Source: a virus
Direction: 5' to 3' (one strand)
DNA: 32,947 nt
UHGV virus genome: UHGV-0038968
The position numbers and the translations under genes were made by a program. Positions within the stretch are counted from its first letter, which is position 1; each line of letters opens with the position of its first letter. This document shows, piece after piece, positions 3,870-27,995 of the stretch. Under the pieces are notes generated by a model. It saw only the letters and a list, made by a program, of their open reading frames with translations. It was not told where the DNA came from and made no database searches.

Positions 3870-4948
3870 CAGAACGGGTCCTCCTGTACTCTGGCTTTTT
3901 TCTTTTTCCGCGCGCCGGGGGCTTCGGGTTCAGGCAGATAAGCATCAGGTGGGCCGACACGGATTTCCGTCAGGGTGCCGTTCTGGTCCTGAGTAAACGT
4001 GACTTCCGAAACAAGCAGTTCGGTATTGTCGAAACCACAGACCGGATCAAAGACAATCACCCGCTGGTTGGGCTGCCACAGCGTACCGTTACCCTGTCGC
4101 CAGCCCTGCACCACATAGGTGGTTTCATCCGTCCGCGCCGCCCGTTGTCTGGCTTCAAAGTCCGCACGGGCAATACAGCCTGCCCCCGTAGCCTGCCCTG
4201 TCTGCCTGATATACATCGGACGGTAACGGGCAATAAATGCGTCCTCTGTGCGGGCCCGCAGCGCGGTGGTGGTGGCCTCACCGAAATCATCGTCGTTTCC
4301 GGCACGCTGCCCCGCCACCTGGTAAACAGAAAACCGCTCCCGGATACTCTTCTCCGTATCGCAGGAAAGGATGTTTTCCCCGAGTACCAGCGCAGTATGT
4401 GCCCGCGTTGAGCCAATACCGCCAATCACCAGCCTGCCGTGCGGGTCGTCGTAAGCCAGTGCCTGCTGCTGACCGAGTATTTTGTTGATTACCTCAATCA
4501 CCGTTTCACCGTGATCAGGCTGAACATCAGGAATAACACCCGACGGCGCACCGCTGTTCACCACCTCAATGCCGAAAGGCGCAGCAAGCGCCTGCGCAAT
4601 CTGCACCAGCGAGCGTCCGTTAAACTGTGTCGGTTCGGCTGCACAGTCAATCAGGTCAGCCGTCAGACTACGTCCGGCAATACCGGTGCTGACCGAACGG
4701 GCATCGTAACGAACGGGAGTCGCCTCCACCCAGCCGGTGATCACCAGCTCATCACCAATCAGCACTTCCACTTTTGAACCGTTTTTAATGCGCGGCTGAA
4801 GCGTGGTGATACCCTCATCTCCCGGCCACTGGCGAGTGATCTCCACACTGAAATCCCGCGCCAGCCGTTCAATACCGGCACCGATGCGCACCGATGTCCA
4901 GCCATTCCACTCCCGGCCATTTACCCGTAGCGTGACATTGTCGTTCAT
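3869..4948 (-). CDS. Tail protein, Mu gpP (gp44)-like baseplate hub
   Basis: 359 aa; follows the DNA-circulation gene as in Mu. Confidence 0.65.
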   Translation of the reverse strand: MNDNVTLRVNGREWNGWTSVRIGAGIERLARDFSVEITRQWPGDEGITTLQPRIKNGSKVEVLIGDELVITGWVEATPVRYDARSVSTGIAGRSLTADLIDCAAEPTQFNGRSLVQIAQALAAPFGIEVVNSGAPSGVIPDVQPDHGETVIEVINKILGQQQALAYDDPHGRLVIGGIGSTRAHTALVLGENILSCDTEKSIRERFSVYQVAGQRAGNDDDFGEATTTALRARTEDAFIARYRPMYIRQTGQATGAGCIARADFEARQRAARTDETTYVVQGWRQGNGTLWQPNQRVIVFDPVCGFDNTELLVSEVTFTQDQNGTLTEIRVGPPDAYLPEPEAPGARKKKKARVQEDPF

Positions 4949-6273
4949 TGCACTGGCACCTTCAGAGGGATCACCGGCACAAAGCCGGGATGCGTAATGG
5001 CATTACGCCGGATAATGTCCGCATCACGCGCCGCGTTATCAAACCAGGTAGCCGCCAGCACCAGCGCGGGTAAAACCTCATCCGGTGTGCGCTGAATGAT
5101 CCGTGCAGACTGTTCAAGGCGCGTGTTGATATCCGCATTCAGATCTGCTTTCACCCGGCGCAGCGCCAGAAACAGCGCATCACTGGTTGTACGGGACAAC
5201 TCCTTATCAATTGCCGTATTCAGTGTGTCGCGAATGTCAGTCAGTTCTTCCCACGTCGGCAGGTCAACCGTGTTTTTCACCGCCGGTGCATTGTTTAGTG
5301 CCGGATGCGTGACGGAAGGCCAGCCAGTGCTCTGCGCGGGTGTTGTTGCCTGCCCCACTGCGGAATTCTGCATCACCGCGGAAGTTGTTGGCGCAGACAA
5401 TCGGGTGACGGCATACGCCGCTTCGCTGATTGCGGTCGTACGAAGGGTGCTGGCAACCACGTTACGCTGCTGCGTCGCCGTGGCGGTGGTTTTACTGTCC
5501 GTTTTCCAGACGCCGCGCGGTTGCAGATCGCTGCCGAGGCTGACACCGGAAAGCGTTTTGATCATGGTGACCAGGTCGCTGGCGTTACCATAAAGGCGTT
5601 TCCCGGTACGCCACATTTTCTGCACCTGCTCAACGAAATTTTTGCCTGACGATGGCGGCGGCAGAAGTACCGAGATATCCCCCTGCAACAGCCTGGCGGC
5701 ATCCGATACGGCAGAATCCACCACTTTCATCGCATCAGAAACATACCCAAGCATTGTGCTGGCATTACCGACGACATCGTTCTGCACAAAATCTGCCACG
5801 CCATCGATACTGAAACTACTGAAACTGTCACTGATGCAGTCATCCAGTGCAGAACAGGATGACATCAGCGTCTGCGCCGTCGCCGCACCTGATGTGGGGT
5901 AAGAGAGTTCTCCCGCTTCGACAAACTTCAGGTCAAAGCGGACAATACGCCCTTCACTCTTCGATGTGCTGACCCGAACTTCTCCGTCAACACAGACTTT
6001 CAGCTCACCGTAAGTCGGATGGACAAGCGTGCCGGGACCGGGTTTATTCAGCGCGTCAATCAGGCGATCGCGCTGGTCAAAGCAGTCATCTCCCACCACA
6101 TAAGCCGTAATGGACGGGCGGAAAGTGATTTTCCCCAGGTCTTCGGTATAGGGTTTGTCGCGGTTCGGGTATTCGTGCGTTTCCACACGACGGCCAGTTC
6201 CCGCACTTTCTTCTTCAACCTTAAACGGCACACCTCGAAATGACGCATCCTGAAGCCTGTCTTTCCACGTCAT
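4945..6273 (-). CDS. DNA circulation protein-like (Mu N / gp43-like)
   Basis: 442 aa; N-terminus MTWKDRLQDASFRGVPFKVEEE...THEYPNRD resembles the Mu N family; directly downstream of the tape measure region. Confidence 0.7.
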   Translation of the reverse strand: MTWKDRLQDASFRGVPFKVEEESAGTGRRVETHEYPNRDKPYTEDLGKITFRPSITAYVVGDDCFDQRDRLIDALNKPGPGTLVHPTYGELKVCVDGEVRVSTSKSEGRIVRFDLKFVEAGELSYPTSGAATAQTLMSSCSALDDCISDSFSSFSIDGVADFVQNDVVGNASTMLGYVSDAMKVVDSAVSDAARLLQGDISVLLPPPSSGKNFVEQVQKMWRTGKRLYGNASDLVTMIKTLSGVSLGSDLQPRGVWKTDSKTTATATQQRNVVASTLRTTAISEAAYAVTRLSAPTTSAVMQNSAVGQATTPAQSTGWPSVTHPALNNAPAVKNTVDLPTWEELTDIRDTLNTAIDKELSRTTSDALFLALRRVKADLNADINTRLEQSARIIQRTPDEVLPALVLAATWFDNAARDADIIRRNAITHPGFVPVIPLKVPVQ

Positions 6274-6334: not shown

Positions 6335-6865
6335 TTAGCGAGTCAGAAACAACGAATCTTTATACTTTTGCTGTTGTTCATTTAAATACTTAGCTGTTTC
6401 ATCGCTGGCAAATGGAAATATTACCGTATTTTTAGGCATGGTAATTTCTTTTTTGTCCAGCGTCAGAGTAAACATAGGAACATACTGAGCAGAGTAACGC
6501 ACCGCAGAAACGAGCTCTAGTTTAGACTCTTCAACAACACTTAAATTATCCAGGCTAACTTTCTCTTCATCTTTTTTCTTTGACGCATTTAAAGTTTTTA
6601 TTACTTTATTTAATTTCTCCTGAAAATCCTCCTTAAAGTTTTCAGGATTGCCGTCGACAACAAGAATCTGTTCACCCTGATTATCTGGAAAAATAATCTT
6701 TGCACTTATCAATTTATTTTCTTTATAAACATCACCAAGTTTTATGGCTCCTCCAGATAACTGAATAATATGTTCATCTTTAAAGGAGATGTTGCCAGAG
6801 ATTATGAGAGATGAAAAAACAGCCGCTGCTCCAAGAATTACACTTGCTGTGATATAGCCTTTCAT
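6335..6865 (-). CDS. Hypothetical exported or membrane-anchored protein (moron), unknown function
   Basis: 176 aa; hydrophobic N-terminus MKGYITASVILGAAAVFSSLIISG; Lys/Glu-rich; visibly AT-rich unlike flanking tail genes; own promoter-like and terminator elements. Confidence 0.7.
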   Translation of the reverse strand: MKGYITASVILGAAAVFSSLIISGNISFKDEHIIQLSGGAIKLGDVYKENKLISAKIIFPDNQGEQILVVDGNPENFKEDFQEKLNKVIKTLNASKKKDEEKVSLDNLSVVEESKLELVSAVRYSAQYVPMFTLTLDKKEITMPKNTVIFPFASDETAKYLNEQQQKYKDSLFLTR

Positions 6866-6956: not shown

Positions 6957-8789
6957 CTACCAAAATCGGGTATAGCCAACATCGTGATTTATATCAATGC
7001 CACTGGAGCGTGTTTCCGTAACCCGCATACCTGGTGGCATATTTATAAATGATACCTTGATCTCACCATCAACTTTTGGCGCAGAAGCTTTGTTAATCAT
7101 GAAGGGATTCGGGCCTGTGGCATCGGAGGCGTTGTTTGACTGAGCCAGATCTACCGCCGGATAAGGTGTGTATCCCCGCGCCGGTATTCCCGTCCCATAA
7201 GCATCATAAGCACCCGCGCCCCACTGCGCAGAGTTAATGGCATCGACCGTGTCACCGGAACTGTCGGTAAACCACTCAATAATTGGCTTCAGCTTATCCC
7301 ACATATCCTGAAACCACTTAACAACCGGTCCCCAGTTATTGATCACCATCCCCAGCGGCGACCAGGCAAAAACCTTCTTCAGAAGTTCCCAGCCAGCCTC
7401 AAAATAAGGACCAATGGTTTCCCAGAGCTTCTTAAAATAAGGTCCGACAACATCCCAGTTAGTGATAATTAATCCCGCAGCCAGAGCAATCGCCGTCGCA
7501 ATCATGCCAATCGGCGTCATCGACATAATCCTGCTGACAATACTGATGGCACTGCCCACGCCCATCAATCCCAGTTTCAGAATCGCAAGACCGGCAGCAA
7601 GCCCGACGACGCCGCGAATAACCCGGGGATTTTCATCCGCAAACTTCGTGAATTTTTCCCCTAACTCCCCCAGCCACTGCGTGATGTTCTTAGCGTCACC
7701 AGAAAATGCGCCGCCAATAGCCGCAAGGCCGTTAGTTGCGGTCCCCGTCATTGCCTCCCACAGGTTGGACAGCGTACCAAGCTGAGCCTGAACACGTTTA
7801 TTCAGGCTGGCCTGTTTATTCATCTTCTGCTGGATCTGATCGTAGCCATCCTTTCCTTTATCGATTAGTGCATTGACCACCTGAAGGGTTTCGGCATCAT
7901 CACCAAATATTGCCTTAAGTACACCGGTTCGCTTAACGTCGGTCAGTTTTCGCAGCTTTGCCAGTTGCCTGAACATGTTATCAAGACCGCCAAAACTCCC
8001 TTTGCCATCAGTAAAATCGAGCTGTACCCCGAGTTTCTGGCGGGCCATGATTTTATTGACGTCCCTGATTTTCTTAACGCTTAATCCGGACTGGATAACT
8101 TTTCGCAGGGCATTACCTGCCGACTCCCCGTTCATCCCCATCTGATCCATCATGACACTGATGGGGGCAAGACTCTGTGCAGCCTGAAGACCGTCCTTAT
8201 TCACCATCTTCAGAACAGAGCTGGTTTTAGTGAAGAATGACAGCATGTTGGTATCGTCCACGCCCAGATAAAACGCCTTCTGAATTGTGTCGAACAGCCC
8301 CATCATGTCTTCTGAGGCCGTTCCGGTAGCATCCTGCATCTTTGCGGCAAACTCAGCAGCCGCTTCCGGTGTTTTTTTCAGTTGTACCGCAAGATAAGCT
8401 GTCGCTTTACCCACACCACCAAGAATGTTTTCTGCCGGGATCCCCTGACGCACCAGCATCTGCATCATGTTCTGGAAATCAGCCGTTGTACCGGGTAGCT
8501 GGTTACCCAGGCCAATAGCCAGTTTATTGATGTCCTGAAAGCTCTTTCCAACCTCGCCGTTCGCATCCATCATGGCGACTTTCAGCCCGGTGGCGGCGTT
8601 TTCCTGATCAGCATAAGATTTCAGGGAAAGCGTCAGACCCGCTGCCAGTCCGCCACCAAGCGCCAGCCCACCCTGTGACGCTTCTTCCGCCTGGCGTTTA
8701 AATCCCCGGATTTTCTTTTGCATTTTCGACAGCGCGGGAGAAAGCCTGTCGACACCGGTGATCAACGCCTTAAGCTCAAATTCAGCCAT
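6957..8789 (-). CDS. Tail tape measure protein
   Basis: 610 aa; Ala/Gly-rich with hydrophobic segments; follows the frameshifted chaperone pair. Confidence 0.8.
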   Translation of the reverse strand: MAEFELKALITGVDRLSPALSKMQKKIRGFKRQAEEASQGGLALGGGLAAGLTLSLKSYADQENAATGLKVAMMDANGEVGKSFQDINKLAIGLGNQLPGTTADFQNMMQMLVRQGIPAENILGGVGKATAYLAVQLKKTPEAAAEFAAKMQDATGTASEDMMGLFDTIQKAFYLGVDDTNMLSFFTKTSSVLKMVNKDGLQAAQSLAPISVMMDQMGMNGESAGNALRKVIQSGLSVKKIRDVNKIMARQKLGVQLDFTDGKGSFGGLDNMFRQLAKLRKLTDVKRTGVLKAIFGDDAETLQVVNALIDKGKDGYDQIQQKMNKQASLNKRVQAQLGTLSNLWEAMTGTATNGLAAIGGAFSGDAKNITQWLGELGEKFTKFADENPRVIRGVVGLAAGLAILKLGLMGVGSAISIVSRIMSMTPIGMIATAIALAAGLIITNWDVVGPYFKKLWETIGPYFEAGWELLKKVFAWSPLGMVINNWGPVVKWFQDMWDKLKPIIEWFTDSSGDTVDAINSAQWGAGAYDAYGTGIPARGYTPYPAVDLAQSNNASDATGPNPFMINKASAPKVDGEIKVSFINMPPGMRVTETRSSGIDINHDVGYTRFW

Positions 8790-19552: not shown

Positions 19553-19828
19553 TCAGGTGTGGGTCCAAATGAATTTAACAATCCCAATAATGCTAGCCAG
19601 AACGCCAAAACCAAAAATAAATTGACCACATACCCCTATGATTCCCGATGCAATGGCACCGGCATTTGTCTGAGCATTTTCGTTTATGCTCGCCCCCACT
19701 AGATACATAATCAAACCAACTATGAGAGATGCGATAATCCAATGTTCCACTGCTAATACAATTACAATGCTCAAAATATCTGCTAAACCATCACTATGAC
19801 CACTCACTGCATATCCTTGCTTTGACAT
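19553..19828 (-). CDS. Small hydrophobic membrane protein (91 aa), unknown function
   Basis: Two to three predicted TM segments (ILSIVIVLAVEHWIIASLIVGLIMYLVGA, GIIGVCGQFIFGFGVLASIIGIV); visibly AT-rich. Confidence 0.55.
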   Translation of the reverse strand: MSKQGYAVSGHSDGLADILSIVIVLAVEHWIIASLIVGLIMYLVGASINENAQTNAGAIASGIIGVCGQFIFGFGVLASIIGIVKFIWTHT

Positions 19829-19894: not shown

Positions 19895-20431
19895 TCAATT
19901 GTGGGGGATAGCGTTATTTGACTCTCTCAACGAGTCGTAAATACGTTCACACGTCATCCCGGCGGTGTAGCGTTCGTCAGCGATTCCAGCATAACGTTTA
20001 GCTTCTGCTGCAATATCTCCGAGCATGTCGGCGAACATTCCGGCGTCGGCGTCGGTTGTTTTGCTTCGGACGGCAGCGGCAAGATCAGCGGTGTGCTTTG
20101 CGGCGTCCAGGCGTGCGGCAAGCTTTGTTGCTTCGGTACGCAACTGGCTAACAGTGGCAGACAGGCCAGCAGCAGTGGCAGCAGATTTAGCGGCTTGTGC
20201 TTGTGCATCTTTTACAGCCTCATCACGGGCAATTATGCGCCCTTGTTCAATCCAGCGTGCGGCAGTCTGCGCGTTCGCTTCCTGTGAAGATTCCATGCTA
20301 TTGTGGTCAGCCCACTTCTTTTGCCAGCCCCGCTCACTCCAGATGTTCCCGACAAGAAATGCACCAGCCAACATCAGCAAAACAATGATTGTTTTCCACC
20401 GCGCCTGAACAAAAGCAAAGACCGCTGTCAT
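19895..20431 (-). CDS. Rz-like i-spanin
   Basis: 178 aa; N-terminal TM ([14 protein letters not shown]) then Ala/Gln-rich coiled-coil-like region; follows the endolysin with 4-nt overlap. Confidence 0.7.
19954..20208 (-). CDS. Rz1-like o-spanin lipoprotein, embedded in Rz in an alternative frame
   Basis: Signal-like stretch with lipobox LLASC followed by a Pro-rich mature region; true start may be an internal codon. Confidence 0.55.
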
Positions 20432-21045
20432 ACCAGCAACGCCGCCCGCGCTTTGTTATAACGACTATTTCTGTCAGCCAGTCCATTCTGGCCACCGTTG
20501 ATGATCTGCGTTACACGGACAACATCACCTGAATACATCAGACAACCACGTAATGTGAAATACCATGCAGCAGAACGGGCTGCATGTTTCTCCTGTGTCA
20601 GCAACTCTGGTGTGCTGATCAGATCCAACTTCAGCGCCGCACCGCATTTGGCGTAGTTCTCGCGGCCGGTGATTTGAAGCAGGCCACGACCGCGATATTT
20701 CCAGCCGTCACCCTGGCTGTTATTCCCCATGCGGTCACCATAAACCAGATTGGCTATTTGCGGCTGGTGGGCTACCTGCTTACCATCGACACGCCCCAGC
20801 ATTTCACACTGATAAGGCGTCAGGCGTTTACTAAAGGTTTTCTTCAGCCCGTCTACCGAGTAGTTGAAGCTTTCCACCAGCGAGGTAAAACCAGCAGATT
20901 CATGCCCAACTTGTGCAATGAACATGGCCTGATCGTTAACTGCTGTGATTCCAAACTCTTTCATTGCAGCATCAATGTGCGGAAACCAGCGCGCAGCCAG
21001 CCCGGCGCTAATACCAGCCGCCTTTTGAAATAATTGTTGGTTCAT
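20428..21045 (-). CDS. Endolysin, glycoside hydrolase family 19 (chitinase-like lysozyme)
   Basis: 205 aa; resembles the GH19 endolysins annotated as putative chitinase in enterobacterial prophages; flanked by holin and Rz. Confidence 0.8.
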
Positions 21046-21326
21046 TAGTGCCTCAGATGATCAACCAGACGTGCAACGTTGCCTCTGACGGCCACCAGCA
21101 CGGAAAGAAAAATAGTGTTCGCCACGATAATGGGCCATGAGGAATGGGGATAAATCCCACAGAGATAGGCCAACGGAACAGCACTGTATGTAACAGTAAT
21201 CAGCCAGGCTAAACGTGAAACCCAAGGACGATGCCGCGAATCACCACGACGATAAAACATCAGAGTAATAACAACACAAGCACATAACAGCGCATTTATA
21301 GTTGCTGTCGGGTCATTTAGCTCCAC
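21045..21326 (-). CDS. Holin or antiholin-like membrane protein
   Basis: 93 aa; two to three hydrophobic helices; between the first holin and the endolysin. Confidence 0.5.
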   Translation of the reverse strand: MELNDPTATINALLCACVVITLMFYRRGDSRHRPWVSRLAWLITVTYSAVPLAYLCGIYPHSSWPIIVANTIFLSVLVAVRGNVARLVDHLRH

Positions 21327-21699
21327 CTGAACCTCCCCGGCGCGTTATGAGCGCCACCAGCGAGCCGATATCCTGATTATTCAGGAACGTCAGGATTTTA
21401 ACGGCTAAAGCAGAGACGATTACGGCACCAATAGCATCCAGAGGTTTATCACTGTATCCGGTCAAGTTCGCCAGCTTGGAGCCAACCAACCCAGAGCAAA
21501 GAATCCCGGCAATATATGACACGATAAAATATGCCAGTCGGCGCGATGCACTCAGATCTGCAGCTGTTGCTATGTAGAATACAGCCCCTGCAAATGCGCC
21601 AAATACAACGCCGTAATCAGTTCCGGTCAGCAGTCCATAAACACTGGCACCCGTCAGGGCACCACCAGCCAGCCCAGTACCGGAAATCGGATCGGACAT
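21313..21699 (-). CDS. Putative holin
   Basis: 128 aa; Gly/Ala-rich TM helices, basic C-terminal tail (RRGGSGGAK); first gene of the lysis cassette. Confidence 0.6.
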   Translation of the reverse strand: MSDPISGTGLAGGALTGASVYGLLTGTDYGVVFGAFAGAVFYIATAADLSASRRLAYFIVSYIAGILCSGLVGSKLANLTGYSDKPLDAIGAVIVSALAVKILTFLNNQDIGSLVALITRRGGSGGAK

Positions 21700-21745
21700 T
21701 TAGCCCCCTCTTAATTGCTGTTGGTCCTCTCAGAACGAGGGGAAA

Positions 21746-21770
21746 CAAAAAAGGCCGCATTAAGGCGGCC
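21746..21770 (-). terminator. Intrinsic terminator between the Q-lysis moron and the holin
   Basis: Minus strand GGCCGC-CTTAAT-GCGGCC then TTTTTT. Confidence 0.6.
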
Positions 21771-21789
21771 TTGGTAAGGTATAGTTTTT

Positions 21790-22386
21790 TTAAGATAAAC
21801 TTTGATTGATATACTCATGACACCCAAAAATAAAGGCGTTTTGTGCATCAATAAATGACTTTTTTTCTTCCGGAGTAAAATACCCTTTTGTAAAACATAC
21901 TTTTAGCGCTTTTTGAAGATCTGCCGTCAGGGTTATCAACTTACAACCTTCCTCATCAGGCCTTATTAATAGAAGTAATTTATTTTTACTTATTTCAGCG
22001 GCCTTTATTGGAACTTGAATCTCCTCAGGGAAAACACCCTTAGCCAATATATCCATATTCTTATTTCCGACCAGATGCCATTGCTCAAATGTGCTGGCCA
22101 ACATAATTACGTCTGTCACATGCTCAGCGCCAGCAAAACGTATTTGTTGCGCCAATTCTTTATTAGTATTCAAGTGAGCCTGTAATGTGGCTAAGGCAAA
22201 ATTTTCTTTGATTGCCCTGTATGCAACCCAACCAGTTATTCCTGCGGCAATAACGCCTGCAAGAGCAGTAATGAGTGTTTCAAAAGGAAAGGAAGAACTG
22301 ATTTCAATTGGCGGTAATTTTTCTATTACCAAGGTCAACTCGCCAGTAGTTTTTTCGAAAGCGTACGGTACGTTTTGCCAAGTCAT
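21790..22386 (-). CDS. Hypothetical single-pass membrane protein (moron between Q and lysis genes)
   Basis: 198 aa; one TM helix (ITALAGVIAAGITGWVAYRAI) after a ~35-aa N-terminal segment; AGGAGG 6 nt upstream of the ATG; visibly AT-rich; no family recognised. Confidence 0.65.
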   Translation of the reverse strand: MTWQNVPYAFEKTTGELTLVIEKLPPIEISSSFPFETLITALAGVIAAGITGWVAYRAIKENFALATLQAHLNTNKELAQQIRFAGAEHVTDVIMLASTFEQWHLVGNKNMDILAKGVFPEEIQVPIKAAEISKNKLLLLIRPDEEGCKLITLTADLQKALKVCFTKGYFTPEEKKSFIDAQNAFIFGCHEYINQSLS

Positions 22387-22416
22387 GAAGCCTCCTGAGT
22401 TTCAGAGGAATCATAA

Positions 22417-22441
22417 CAAAAAAACCCGCTCAATGGCGGGC
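22417..22441 (-). terminator. Intrinsic terminator immediately downstream of Q (tR'-like)
   Basis: Minus strand CCCGC-CATTGA-GCGGG then TTTTTTT. Confidence 0.6.
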
Positions 22442-22492
22442 TCTTAATGTTGTGTTGCTCAGTTCGCTTTAACGTCCCGAGCCTACCACAAT

Positions 22493-23071
22493 TTAAGCAC
22501 TTTCTTGCTCACTCTGCAACTTAAATCTGTCGCTATTTGTGCCGAATGCGTCACAAACTGGAGCGTACAGGATCGATTCTGCAAGACTTAGCCAAGTGTC
22601 AATGCGTCGACGACAGGTGATCAGCGGCCAGTCAGGATGTTTAGCCTGCAGTTCATTGGCCATCTGCAACTTGCTCTTACGAAGACGATACCGGTCAACA
22701 ATCACGCTATAGAGCGATCGGTAGTCATCATTCATCAGTACTGAAGCAATGACACCGTCCACTAACAACCCTTCTTCATCTGAACAGAACGCCAGGCCGC
22801 TTTTATTTTTGCTGTTGAGAATTTCACGCAGGTACGCTTCAAGTTCAGGCTTGGTGATACCCGCTATCTTCATCCGGCGTAGCGCTTCATTGATAGCTGT
22901 CTTGGTGATTTTCCCGGATGCCAGAAGCTGGTTAAACATGTTTCCACCACTACCACCGCCGATATAAGACCAGCGGCCCCACATGCGCAACTTGCCTTGT
23001 ATCCAGATACTTTCCAGAGTACGAAGGCGAACCATTTCACCTGATTTGCCAACTTCAGAAGGATTAATCAT
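22493..23071 (-). CDS. Late-gene antiterminator Q-like protein
   Basis: 192 aa; position directly upstream of a short terminated leader and the lysis cassette; translation resembles lambdoid Q family proteins. Confidence 0.7.
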   Translation of the reverse strand: MINPSEVGKSGEMVRLRTLESIWIQGKLRMWGRWSYIGGGSGGNMFNQLLASGKITKTAINEALRRMKIAGITKPELEAYLREILNSKNKSGLAFCSDEEGLLVDGVIASVLMNDDYRSLYSVIVDRYRLRKSKLQMANELQAKHPDWPLITCRRRIDTWLSLAESILYAPVCDAFGTNSDRFKLQSEQESA

Positions 23072-26933: not shown

Positions 26934-27166
26934 GCTGCACCTCCGAGATGCTTCATGTTTTTTCCGGAGCGAAAGGCAATAAGCGGCATACTGACGCGGT
27001 AATTGCGGCCCAGCGGTTCACAAATCACCTTCTGACATTCACAGTCAACCAGGCTGACACGTAGAACATGCCCTGCTGGCGTGGTGTACCACTGCCCAAC
27101 TGTGGGTGTTGATATTTTTTTACGCTGAAATAAACGGTAAATGTTGAGGAGCAACGGATTAAGCAT
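26930..27166 (-). CDS. Small hypothetical protein (78 aa, Cys-containing)
   Basis: Overlaps both neighbours by a few nt in an operon-like arrangement; no family recognised. Confidence 0.4.
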   Translation of the reverse strand: MLNPLLLNIYRLFQRKKISTPTVGQWYTTPAGHVLRVSLVDCECQKVICEPLGRNYRVSMPLIAFRSGKNMKHLGGAA

Positions 27167-27995
27167 GACGATGCCCTCCGCTGATATTCAGGAGACGGTG
27201 AATATGAAAATTAGCCTTATCCGCCAGACGAATACGTTCAGCTTGCAAGTTAAGAAGGGTTTCTACCAGAACCTGATGTGCCTGCGGATCCGAAAGAGTT
27301 ACCTTGCGCAGAGCACGTAGTGCAGTTGTTACATAACTGAGTTTATGTAAGTCTTCATCATTCAGACGAGTGAGGGCTGGGACAGTAGCCATGATGGCAG
27401 CCTCCTTGATCGGTGAAATACTTCCACCACCGGAAACGCCAATTTCGCTGGTGGTGAACTGAACGGGGTTGGCGTAACCGGTGATCAAGGAAACCGGCGC
27501 ATCTTTCGATGCCCCCGCCCAGCCCACCATAACTTTGATGTGAGCAAATGCGGACGATAAAAAAGACGCTGGCGCGTCATATATCGCCTTGATCAATTCC
27601 AGGACGCCAATCCCGGCACCCGCTTTATAAGGTGCCTGAACAGTGTAACGTCCCGGAATGGCAGAATCAATGTGCTGGTGGTCCTTCACACTCAACAAAA
27701 TCACGCCTGAATTTCCACAAAGGGCTAAAGCACTCATGCGGGTAGTCTTTGCGAAGATAGATAACGCGCTGTGTTTCTGACTCCCAACGAATAACATGAA
27801 CATAAAGTCCTCTTCCGTCACGAAACCAGCGGTTAAGTTCCTGCACAACTCGCCCCCCACAGTCAGGTAAAGTTCTCTGTGGTTACTTACAGCCAGGAGA
27901 TTTGGTAATCTGCATTCATGCCGTAACAACACGTGTTCAGCGACGCTGACCACCAGCTGTTGCGACAAACGGTTATTTGCCGTTAAACTGTTCAT
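27159..27995 (-). CDS. Hypothetical protein (278 aa), unknown function, early-right operon
   Basis: Long ORF tightly packed between the CII/YdaT-like gene and the small ORF; no motif recognised (no Walker A). Confidence 0.55.
   Translation of the reverse strand: MNSLTANNRLSQQLVVSVAEHVLLRHECRLPNLLAVSNHRELYLTVGGELCRNLTAGFVTEEDFMFMLFVGSQKHSALSIFAKTTRMSALALCGNSGVILLSVKDHQHIDSAIPGRYTVQAPYKAGAGIGVLELIKAIYDAPASFLSSAFAHIKVMVGWAGASKDAPVSLITGYANPVQFTTSEIGVSGGGSISPIKEAAIMATVPALTRLNDEDLHKLSYVTTALRALRKVTLSDPQAHQVLVETLLNLQAERIRLADKANFHIHRLLNISGGHRHA

Follow-up and report, generated by a model that had tools for sequence, protein, structure and literature searches.

The 32,947-nucleotide virus genome UHGV-0038968, which as a whole is called the window here, carries on its minus strand a short AT-rich cassette between the gene for the late antiterminator Q and the first holin gene of the lysis cassette. 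The cassette encodes a protein of 198 amino acids (aa) with one predicted transmembrane (TM) helix. Judged by its sequence and its distribution among prophages, it is a moron-type accessory unit, placed between the terminator tR' of the late-control module and the holin. The features of the locus, read 5' to 3' along the minus strand and given with distances in nucleotides (nt), are the following.

22493..23071, minus strand: late antiterminator Q, 192 aa, matching PF06576/DUF1133 (E 3e-92) and phrog_753 (anti-termination protein Q-like).
22491..22519, minus strand: candidate late promoter pR', with TTGCAG (22519-22514), a 17-nt spacer and TGcTTAAAT (22499-22491), overlapping the Q stop codon.
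22413..22445, minus strand: tR'-type intrinsic terminator, scan hairpin 22445-22420 followed by seven T, core stem CCCGC/GCGGG at 22440-22425, -14.8 kcal/mol.
21745..22417, minus strand: exchangeable cargo cassette of about 673 bp, GC 0.389, delimited by BLAST homology breakpoints, flank comparison and composition.
22418-22410, minus strand: candidate extended -10 element, TGTTATGAT, a consensus match that abuts the T-tract of tR', 32 nt 5' of the ATG.
22396-22391, minus strand: Shine-Dalgarno sequence AGGAGG, read from the sequence, 4 nt 5' of the ATG.
21790..22386, minus strand: open reading frame (ORF) of 198 aa with an ATG start, comprising an N-terminal tail (residues 1-36), a TM helix (37-57) and a four-helix bundle (58-198).
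21745..21772, minus strand: 3' intrinsic terminator of the cassette, scan hairpin 21772-21751 followed by six T, stem AAGGCCGC/GCGGCCTT, -14.3 kcal/mol.
21313-21699, minus strand: holin of Pfam family PF16931, the first gene of the lysis cassette (19895..21699).

The preliminary description of this stretch had proposed a single-pass membrane protein of 198 aa with a strong Shine-Dalgarno sequence, a GC content visibly below that of Q and the holin, and an intrinsic terminator on either side. These elements are all present. The ORF is preceded by AGGAGG and encodes one hydrophobic stretch, and its GC content is 0.384 (0.327 at third codon positions, GC3), below that of Q (0.478), the holin (0.522) and the window as a whole (0.520); a value as low as this is reached by only 1.4% of 600-nt segments. 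The two flanking terminators, whose energies are those of predicted RNA hairpin folds, hold the two highest ranks in the terminator scan. The number of terminators across the region (8 versus 5.5 expected) is unremarkable taken alone; the two sites recur at equal relative positions in relatives, with differing sequences. The predicted 3' terminator lies 16 nt past the ORF stop. Rfam models matched no RNA family within the Q-to-holin interval.

The interval is 100% identical to that of chromosomal prophages in E. coli, for example in strain D10, where the prophage is integrated beside tRNA-Thr/proA and the 198-aa gene is annotated as hypothetical (WP_000220228.1). Among the virion genes of the window are those for a tail sheath and a DNA_circ_N protein, so that this phage has a contractile tail. 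In the D10 prophage the same block of Q, cargo and lysis genes adjoins lambda-type tail genes, and the block therefore moves between virion types.

The Q-to-holin segment was searched against 5,426 complete E. coli genomes. Part of it was matched in 269 of them, and only 32 of these 269 hold the whole arrangement. On the Q side the matches, which come from other DUF1133 Q genes, span the Q stop codon and the 5' terminator and end at 22418. On the holin side, matches at 99.3% identity begin at 21744, and those of two other lineages at 21772 or 21735. Both breakpoints were confirmed by direct comparison of the flanks. The slot between them is occupied by an 85-aa ORF in phage SKA5, strain HB-Coli0 and Salmonella phage 118970_sal3, by Sb50 in ST64B, by ORFs of 261 aa (KSC64) and 249 aa (FAM21845) elsewhere, and in Ec42 by an unrelated 198-aa ORF with several TM segments on the reverse strand. 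The cargo position assumed from the start between Q and holin is thus borne out by prophages in which Q is the same, or the holin 99% identical, and the genes there are unrelated. The preliminary description had named, as a finding that would speak against it, a core lysis protein shared by all relatives; this is not what was found, the gene being in only 32 of the 269 genomes. These sequence comparisons support the view that the interval behaves here as a variable cargo slot. Since holin genes 99.3% identical to that of the window occur in prophages without the 198-aa gene, the lysis cassette should work without it. Among ten other slot occupants no PADLOC or Pfam defence gene was recognized, the sole match being a DUF726 hydrolase-like protein, and for this reason the slot cannot be called a defence hotspot.

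The terminators that bracket the gene differ in what they belong to. The 75 nt past the Q stop are conserved together with the DUF1133 Q in prophages with different cargo, and comprise TTGCAG-N17-TGcTTAAAT and then, past a leader of about 60 nt, the hairpin. Because it is common to DUF1133-Q prophages carrying other cargo, the 5' terminator is most simply identified as tR' of the Q/pR' late-control module. The early impression of a gene framed by two terminators is therefore correct as to their presence, but the 5' one is not private to the gene and is shared with other cargo. The 3' terminator falls on the cargo side of the module boundary in most comparisons. The candidate pR' was not called by a two-hexamer promoter scan; it is kept in two other DUF1133-Q prophages with different cargo (L026 and L027), and its assignment is a consensus-level one. 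The DUF1133 modules of Providencia have a textbook TTGACT-N17-TATAGT promoter and then a terminator at the same place, and Enterobacter modules with a lambda-type Q show TGGTAATTT, then AACGATGGGTT, then a terminator. We take AACGATGGGTT to match the pause region of lambda pR'. The Q of the window also scores 34.8 bits for PF06530 (cutoff 26), and its sequence identifies it as a DUF1133-type Q and a probable distant relative of the Q21 family.

Sixty-nine loci of the family were collected; they represent 41 distinct alleles, which fall into 14 clusters at 50% identity. Nearly all 41 alleles sit between Q and a holin, usually as the first ORF past tR'. The terminators accompany them: the 5' one lies 0-39 nt ahead of the start in at least 24 of the 41, and the 3' one 16-40 nt past the stop in at least 27, with differing sequences. 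Four families of Q are found 5' of the gene, namely DUF1133, PF06530 (Q21 type), PF03589 (lambda type) and PF06323 (Q82 type). The holins 3' of it belong to at least four families (PF16931 with PF05449, PF04971, PF16080, a 91-aa type and a 115-aa type, the last adjoining a peptidase-like endolysin whose family was assigned by reading its sequence only). As far as sequences can tell, the family thus keeps to the Q-to-holin slot nearly always, whatever the Q family, the holin family or the virion type.

Such constancy is what would be seen if the protein were an accessory regulator of lysis timing, made under Q ahead of all other late-operon products, inserted in the inner membrane beside the holins, and delaying or sharpening their triggering without any role in the lysogen. 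In a variant of this explanation, the protein would link triggering with a periplasmic cue and so resemble an antiholin or a lysis-inhibition factor. The gene does lie directly 5' of the holin and 3' of tR' in whatever phage lineage, and several clades leave no room for a separate promoter, with 0-14 nt between T-tract and ribosome-binding site (RBS). The pairing with holins tells otherwise. At least four unrelated holin families are involved, and alleles 75% identical to that of the window adjoin a PF04971 holin and not PF16931, which argues against co-evolution with a particular holin. Against this role stand also the near-identical holins of prophages without the gene, the conserved terminator between gene and holin, the extended -10 conserved in half of the clusters, and the absence of a match to any holin or antiholin family of Pfam or PHROG. 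We regard a role in lysis timing as the chief alternative, though as rather unlikely.

The family itself appears from its sequences to be real but rare. The 198-aa ORF matches PHROG 18859, an entry that carries neither function nor description and so explains nothing, over its full length (1-198 of 198, E 7.3e-91), and all 32 diverse relatives match it as well. No credible Pfam, NCBIfam or PADLOC match was obtained for the protein, the 32 relatives or the longer members of the family. The 198-aa protein had no match in PADLOC-DB v2 at E up to 1, and the 32 relatives gave scattered matches to unrelated models, 1-2 members each, at E 5e-4 or weaker. The early statement that no family could be assigned is therefore essentially upheld, but for the PHROG entry. 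A tblastn search of the protein against 50,697 deposited phage records found nothing, a word-indexed search returned 11 clusters, all from E. coli or Enterobacter, and a second such search with broad alignment added at least three more distant relatives. A profile search run exhaustively over 1.84 billion representatives yielded 36 proteins (clusters), nearly all of about 190-230 aa, and a scan of one genome per species (185,579 species) gave a single locus. Members with a named source come from Escherichia, Enterobacter, Hafnia, Salmonella, Citrobacter, Pantoea and Providencia, all Enterobacterales, and are all annotated as hypothetical. No viral loci were found for P0019, and a literature search found nothing on the 198-aa protein or its accession.

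Rarity, and the existence of a frameshifted allele, could suggest a chance or decaying ORF whose terminators are redundant tR' terminators. The frameshifted allele (P0002, E. coli) accounts for 16 of about 190 member sequences, on 31 contigs; from about residue 176 it shifts into the frame of the ORF at 21711-21851, crosses the terminator and reaches 224 aa. Selection and conservation effectively refute this explanation, which we consider barely credible. The dN/dS ratio is 0.06-0.15 between alleles with dS from 0.4 to more than 2, full-length homologues of common architecture persist to about 20% identity, the RBS is strong, and a diverse alignment gives a confident fold.

The topology of the protein was deduced from hydropathy and charge. 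Its one hydrophobic stretch covers residues 37-55 (Kyte-Doolittle mean 1.81), with no second stretch, and a single TM helix is found in all 32 members.

22216..22278, minus strand: codons of the TM helix, residues 37-57, TLITALAGVIAAGITGWVAYR, rich in Ala, Gly and Thr; assigned from hydropathy and flank charges in 32 members.

In these members the flank before the TM helix has on average 1.0 K/R and 2.0 D/E, and the flank after it 2.8 K/R and 1.0 D/E. The whole N-terminal tail is net acidic. Because of this charge distribution and the positive-inside rule, the protein would have its N terminus out and its C terminus in, and the tail of about 35 residues is quite probably periplasmic and the bundle cytoplasmic. 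Longer members (229-283 aa; L032-L044, on IMG/VR prophage contigs) keep the MAWQGIPF tail and the TM helix, and add a highly charged KE-rich segment directly past it, a coiled-coil spacer, with the common motifs ANRQxWIxxLRE, MLNP and EWExVK. A weakly hydrophobic TM helix (Kyte-Doolittle 1.8) rich in Ala, Gly and Thr is a further point in favour of lysis timing, as it presumably resembles signal-arrest-release (SAR) and antiholin segments. The layout of about 35 aa, a TM helix and about 140 aa counts on the same side, in that we take it to resemble that of T4 holin T, with no Pfam match supporting kinship.

AlphaFold with 11 close sequences gave an unusable model (predicted local distance difference test, pLDDT, 41). 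AlphaFold2 with the 32 diverse relatives reached pLDDT 84.1 and a predicted TM-score (pTM) of 0.67. In this model a low-confidence tail (residues 1-33) is followed by a long helix, 35-107, in which the TM segment continues as the first helix of the bundle, and helices 121-140, 145-167 and 172-197 close a four-helix bundle. Mean column identity is 0.37 in the tail, 0.40 in the TM helix and 0.14 in the bundle; W3, P7, P25 and F33 are nearly invariant. Foldseek found no match at E <= 0.001 among viral predicted structures (BFVD), and against the PDB all matches had E > 0.01, the closest folds being periplasmic four-helix-bundle sensor domains. Assignment of the bundle as such a periplasmic sensor domain was rejected, the charge distribution being against it. 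A profile search of PDB sequences gave noise only, and a Csx28 match at E 6.9 was not used as evidence.

The tail motif has a look-alike elsewhere in the window. Residues 11-24 of the DNA_circ_N protein (4945-6273, minus strand) include FRGVPFKVEEE, resembling the family's WQG[VI]PF. Mimicry of this FRGVPF motif was rejected (family hidden Markov model, -1.1 bits), and the likeness is treated as coincidence.

The preliminary description had left the choice between readthrough under Q and a cryptic promoter. For the latter there is now a concrete candidate, the extended -10 element TGTTATGAT, although it is a consensus match only and is present in 7 of the 14 clusters. The motif TGnTAnnnT lies at -28 to -37 in these 7 clusters (50% protein identity), compared with 5% per sequence in shuffled upstream regions, and the remaining 5' untranslated region is unrelated among them. 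For independent clusters, its presence in 7 of 14 would be very improbable; given their shared ancestry, the figure is read not as a probability but as suggesting conservation beyond the coding sequence. In flank comparisons the element was not seen past the same tR' where cargo outside the family follows. An Enterobacter hormaechei prophage remnant is suggestive of transcription independent of Q. It has no Q and a broken tR' hairpin (CCTCGCTATGTCGG in place of the CCTCGCTACGGCGAGG of intact relatives), while the -10 motif (TGcTATGAT), the RBS, an intact ORF and the 3' terminator are kept. The remnant lies in the E. hormaechei chromosome (L011, 5838-6012; also L010 and L012) beside a host peptidase M3 gene, and retains a PF04971 holin. 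The best indirect argument is the retained 3' terminator: Q-modified RNA polymerase would ignore it, and its retention would imply that transcription without Q crosses the gene.

At the level of sequence, these results establish an exchangeable unit of foreign composition with a strong RBS, a gene under purifying selection and a predicted 3' terminator of its own. Patchy presence at the same position, deviant composition and a predicted terminator of its own are traits of a moron, as would be a promoter of its own active in the repressed prophage, for which the extended -10 is a candidate. In a lysogen, low constitutive expression independent of Q could start from the extended -10, and/or arise by leakage through tR', and the transcript would be halted by the cassette terminator ahead of the holin. 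Upon induction, Q-loaded and terminator-resistant transcription from pR' would raise expression to a high level. The protein might then act at the inner membrane in conflict between phages, either by superinfection exclusion or as a sensor or effector of abortive infection. The conserved tail and TM helix would engage a conserved component of the envelope, and the variable bundle would provide specificity or oligomerisation, to the benefit of the lysogen and not as part of the lysis machinery. This function is inferred only and is the weakest part of our interpretation. The preliminary description had suggested superinfection exclusion or abortive infection, lysis-timing control or a host-interaction factor, each of which stays conjectural. 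We favour it tentatively, at somewhat less than even confidence, because of the moron anatomy, the candidate promoter, the retained terminator, the independence from particular holins, the dispensability of the gene, the diversifying bundle and the remnant.

Several observations weigh against this interpretation. A lysis-related role could account equally well for the constant place of the gene at the start of the lysis operon. The extended -10, itself a consensus match only, is missing from 7 of the 14 clusters. In Providencia-type alleles the RBS abuts the T-tract of tR', so that these copies should be reachable from pR' only, a layout that fits a purely late, Q-dependent gene. The remnant represents a single lineage, and its holin was also kept. 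The frameshifted allele is fairly common in E. coli, and loss of the gene is therefore tolerated. Neither the 198-aa protein nor the ten other slot occupants match any PADLOC defence model. The likeness to sensor domains, if meaningful, would favour a topology opposite to the one predicted here.

The lack of a match to any defence model is compatible with a different benefit, to the lysogen or to late virion production. The protein could be a factor of lysogenic conversion or host takeover, acting as a membrane-tethered cytoplasmic adaptor for an envelope, division or stress process of the host. Moron anatomy and patchy distribution are the same under this explanation, and a conserved tail and TM helix joined to a variable helical bundle fit a tethered adaptor. 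Nothing, however, points to a particular host process, and a column identity of 0.14 in the bundle is more typical of a conflict interface than of an adaptor to a conserved host machine. We see a host factor as unlikely. A bolder proposal is that of a lambdoid sensor for lysis inhibition or late decision. Its conserved periplasmic tail would detect an event at the envelope, such as superinfection or damage to peptidoglycan or membrane, and its TM-linked cytoplasmic bundle would relay the signal, retiming holin triggering or collapsing the membrane. Such a role would account for the retention of the gene as the first one past tR' ahead of four unrelated holin families, and is in our opinion quite improbable. 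A less exotic variant of this proposal is that the protein could belong to a new single-gene family of membrane-acting anti-phage defence, boosted by Q on prophage induction.

The lysis cassette that follows the 198-aa ORF is complete, with two holin-family genes, an endolysin, Rz and an Rz1-like gene. Beyond the PF16931 holin it comprises the following.

21045-21326, minus strand: 3TM holin, PF05449 (Pfam).
20428-21045, minus strand: GH19 endolysin.
19895-20431, minus strand: Rz, PF10721/phrog_312.
19954-20208: Rz1-like lipoprotein ORF, embedded within Rz.

Two further identities were considered for the 198-aa protein and rejected. The first was a third holin or antiholin, for which there is no family match and no pairing with one holin, the gene being dispensable in relatives. 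The second was a spanin, as Rz and the embedded Rz1-like gene are already present, the segment before the TM helix has 36 aa, and no spanin match was found.

The slot has other contents in more distant phages. In Proteus- and Providencia-like phages, extra cargo genes on either strand share it with the family gene, and none of them matches a defence model. They include small proteins with Rx4-6H-like motifs (L007-L009, about 4187-4753 on the reverse strand in L007, and L016 4554-4937), which, read by eye, could be of HEPN type. A DUF726 hydrolase-like protein (L020 4083-4841) and methyltransferases are also found in such slots, without a match in PADLOC. In one distant prophage (L037, 3622-3694) a tRNA-Met gene lies just 5' of the family gene, echoing the tRNA genes that occur in the Q-to-stx interval of Stx phages.

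Three other places of the window deserve mention. A 176-aa ORF with an N-terminal hydrophobic segment and no Pfam match (6335-6865, minus strand) looks like a second moron-type insert, in the tail module. It is flanked by the tape-measure gene (6957-8789, PF10145) and the DNA_circ_N gene, and falls in the island of the window that is richest in AT (GC about 0.35). Just 3' of Rz/Rz1, in a bor-like position, is a 91-aa ORF with several TM segments (19553-19828, minus strand; GC 0.406, GC3 0.337). It matches phrog_28582, again an entry without function (E 3.5e-54), and the corresponding interval of D10 has no annotated coding sequence. In the early region, Rfam models identify adjacent C4 antisense RNA (82 bits; 27447-27534, minus strand) and IsrK small RNA (64 bits; 27559-27635, minus strand) sequences, placed 5' of an Ash-family ORF (27159-27995). 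Together they suggest a P1/P7-type, C4/ant-like immunity element.

The interval between Q and holin is the site of highly consequential lambdoid cargo, Shiga toxin included. The cassette defines a second, unstudied cargo family that holds this position across Enterobacterales behind four unrelated families of antiterminator. With its clean module boundaries, a candidate promoter set against tR' and a confident structural model, it is an easy experimental target. If neither the anti-phage nor the lysis-timing role is true, it is one more hypothetical moron, and hypothetical membrane morons are common. In any case the cassette is an uncharacterised moron in the Q-to-lysis slot, and there is no sign of a new category of system.

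Comparison with known systems places the protein apart from those it superficially resembles. Four-helix-bundle sensor domains, such as those of TorS (3i9w), McpN (6gcv), NarQ (5iji) and Tsr/Tar, are approached only at Foldseek E > 0.01 and 4-13% identity. Unlike sensors of the 4HB_MCP type, the 198-aa protein has no second TM helix, no output domain and no 4HB_MCP Pfam match, and its bundle is predicted to be cytoplasmic. An i-spanin has an N-terminal TM helix, a periplasmic coiled coil and an o-spanin partner, and occurs once per cassette; the 198-aa ORF does not follow this plan. T4 holin T and antiholin RI share with the protein a bitopic form, a lysis context, a segment of about 35 residues ahead of the TM helix and a large domain C-terminal to it. 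However, no holin match was found in Pfam or PHROG, the 198-aa protein has a different predicted fold and topology, two holin-family genes are already present in the phage, and the gene is dispensable in close relatives.

Inner-membrane superinfection-exclusion proteins are represented by P22 SieA, HK97 gp15 and T4 Imm. Like the protein described here, these are small membrane proteins encoded by accessory genes of phages, patchily distributed and fast-diverging. No sequence or profile similarity to them was detected, and the present protein differs in having one TM helix and a helical bundle of about 140 aa.

The closest comparison is with the morons of the lambdoid Q-to-S interval, namely stx1/stx2 in Stx phages and the lc/nmpC porin genes in PA-2/DLP12. 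The moron concept is reportedly due to Hendrix and colleagues. The cassette differs from these examples in that its product is predicted to be an inner-membrane four-helix-bundle protein, and not a toxin or a porin, and in that its promoter is a conserved consensus match. In common with them, it occupies the same slot past pR'/tR' ahead of the holin, is present or absent among near-identical prophages, deviates in GC content, and has its own terminator, a candidate promoter of its own and, as inferred here, a boost by Q.

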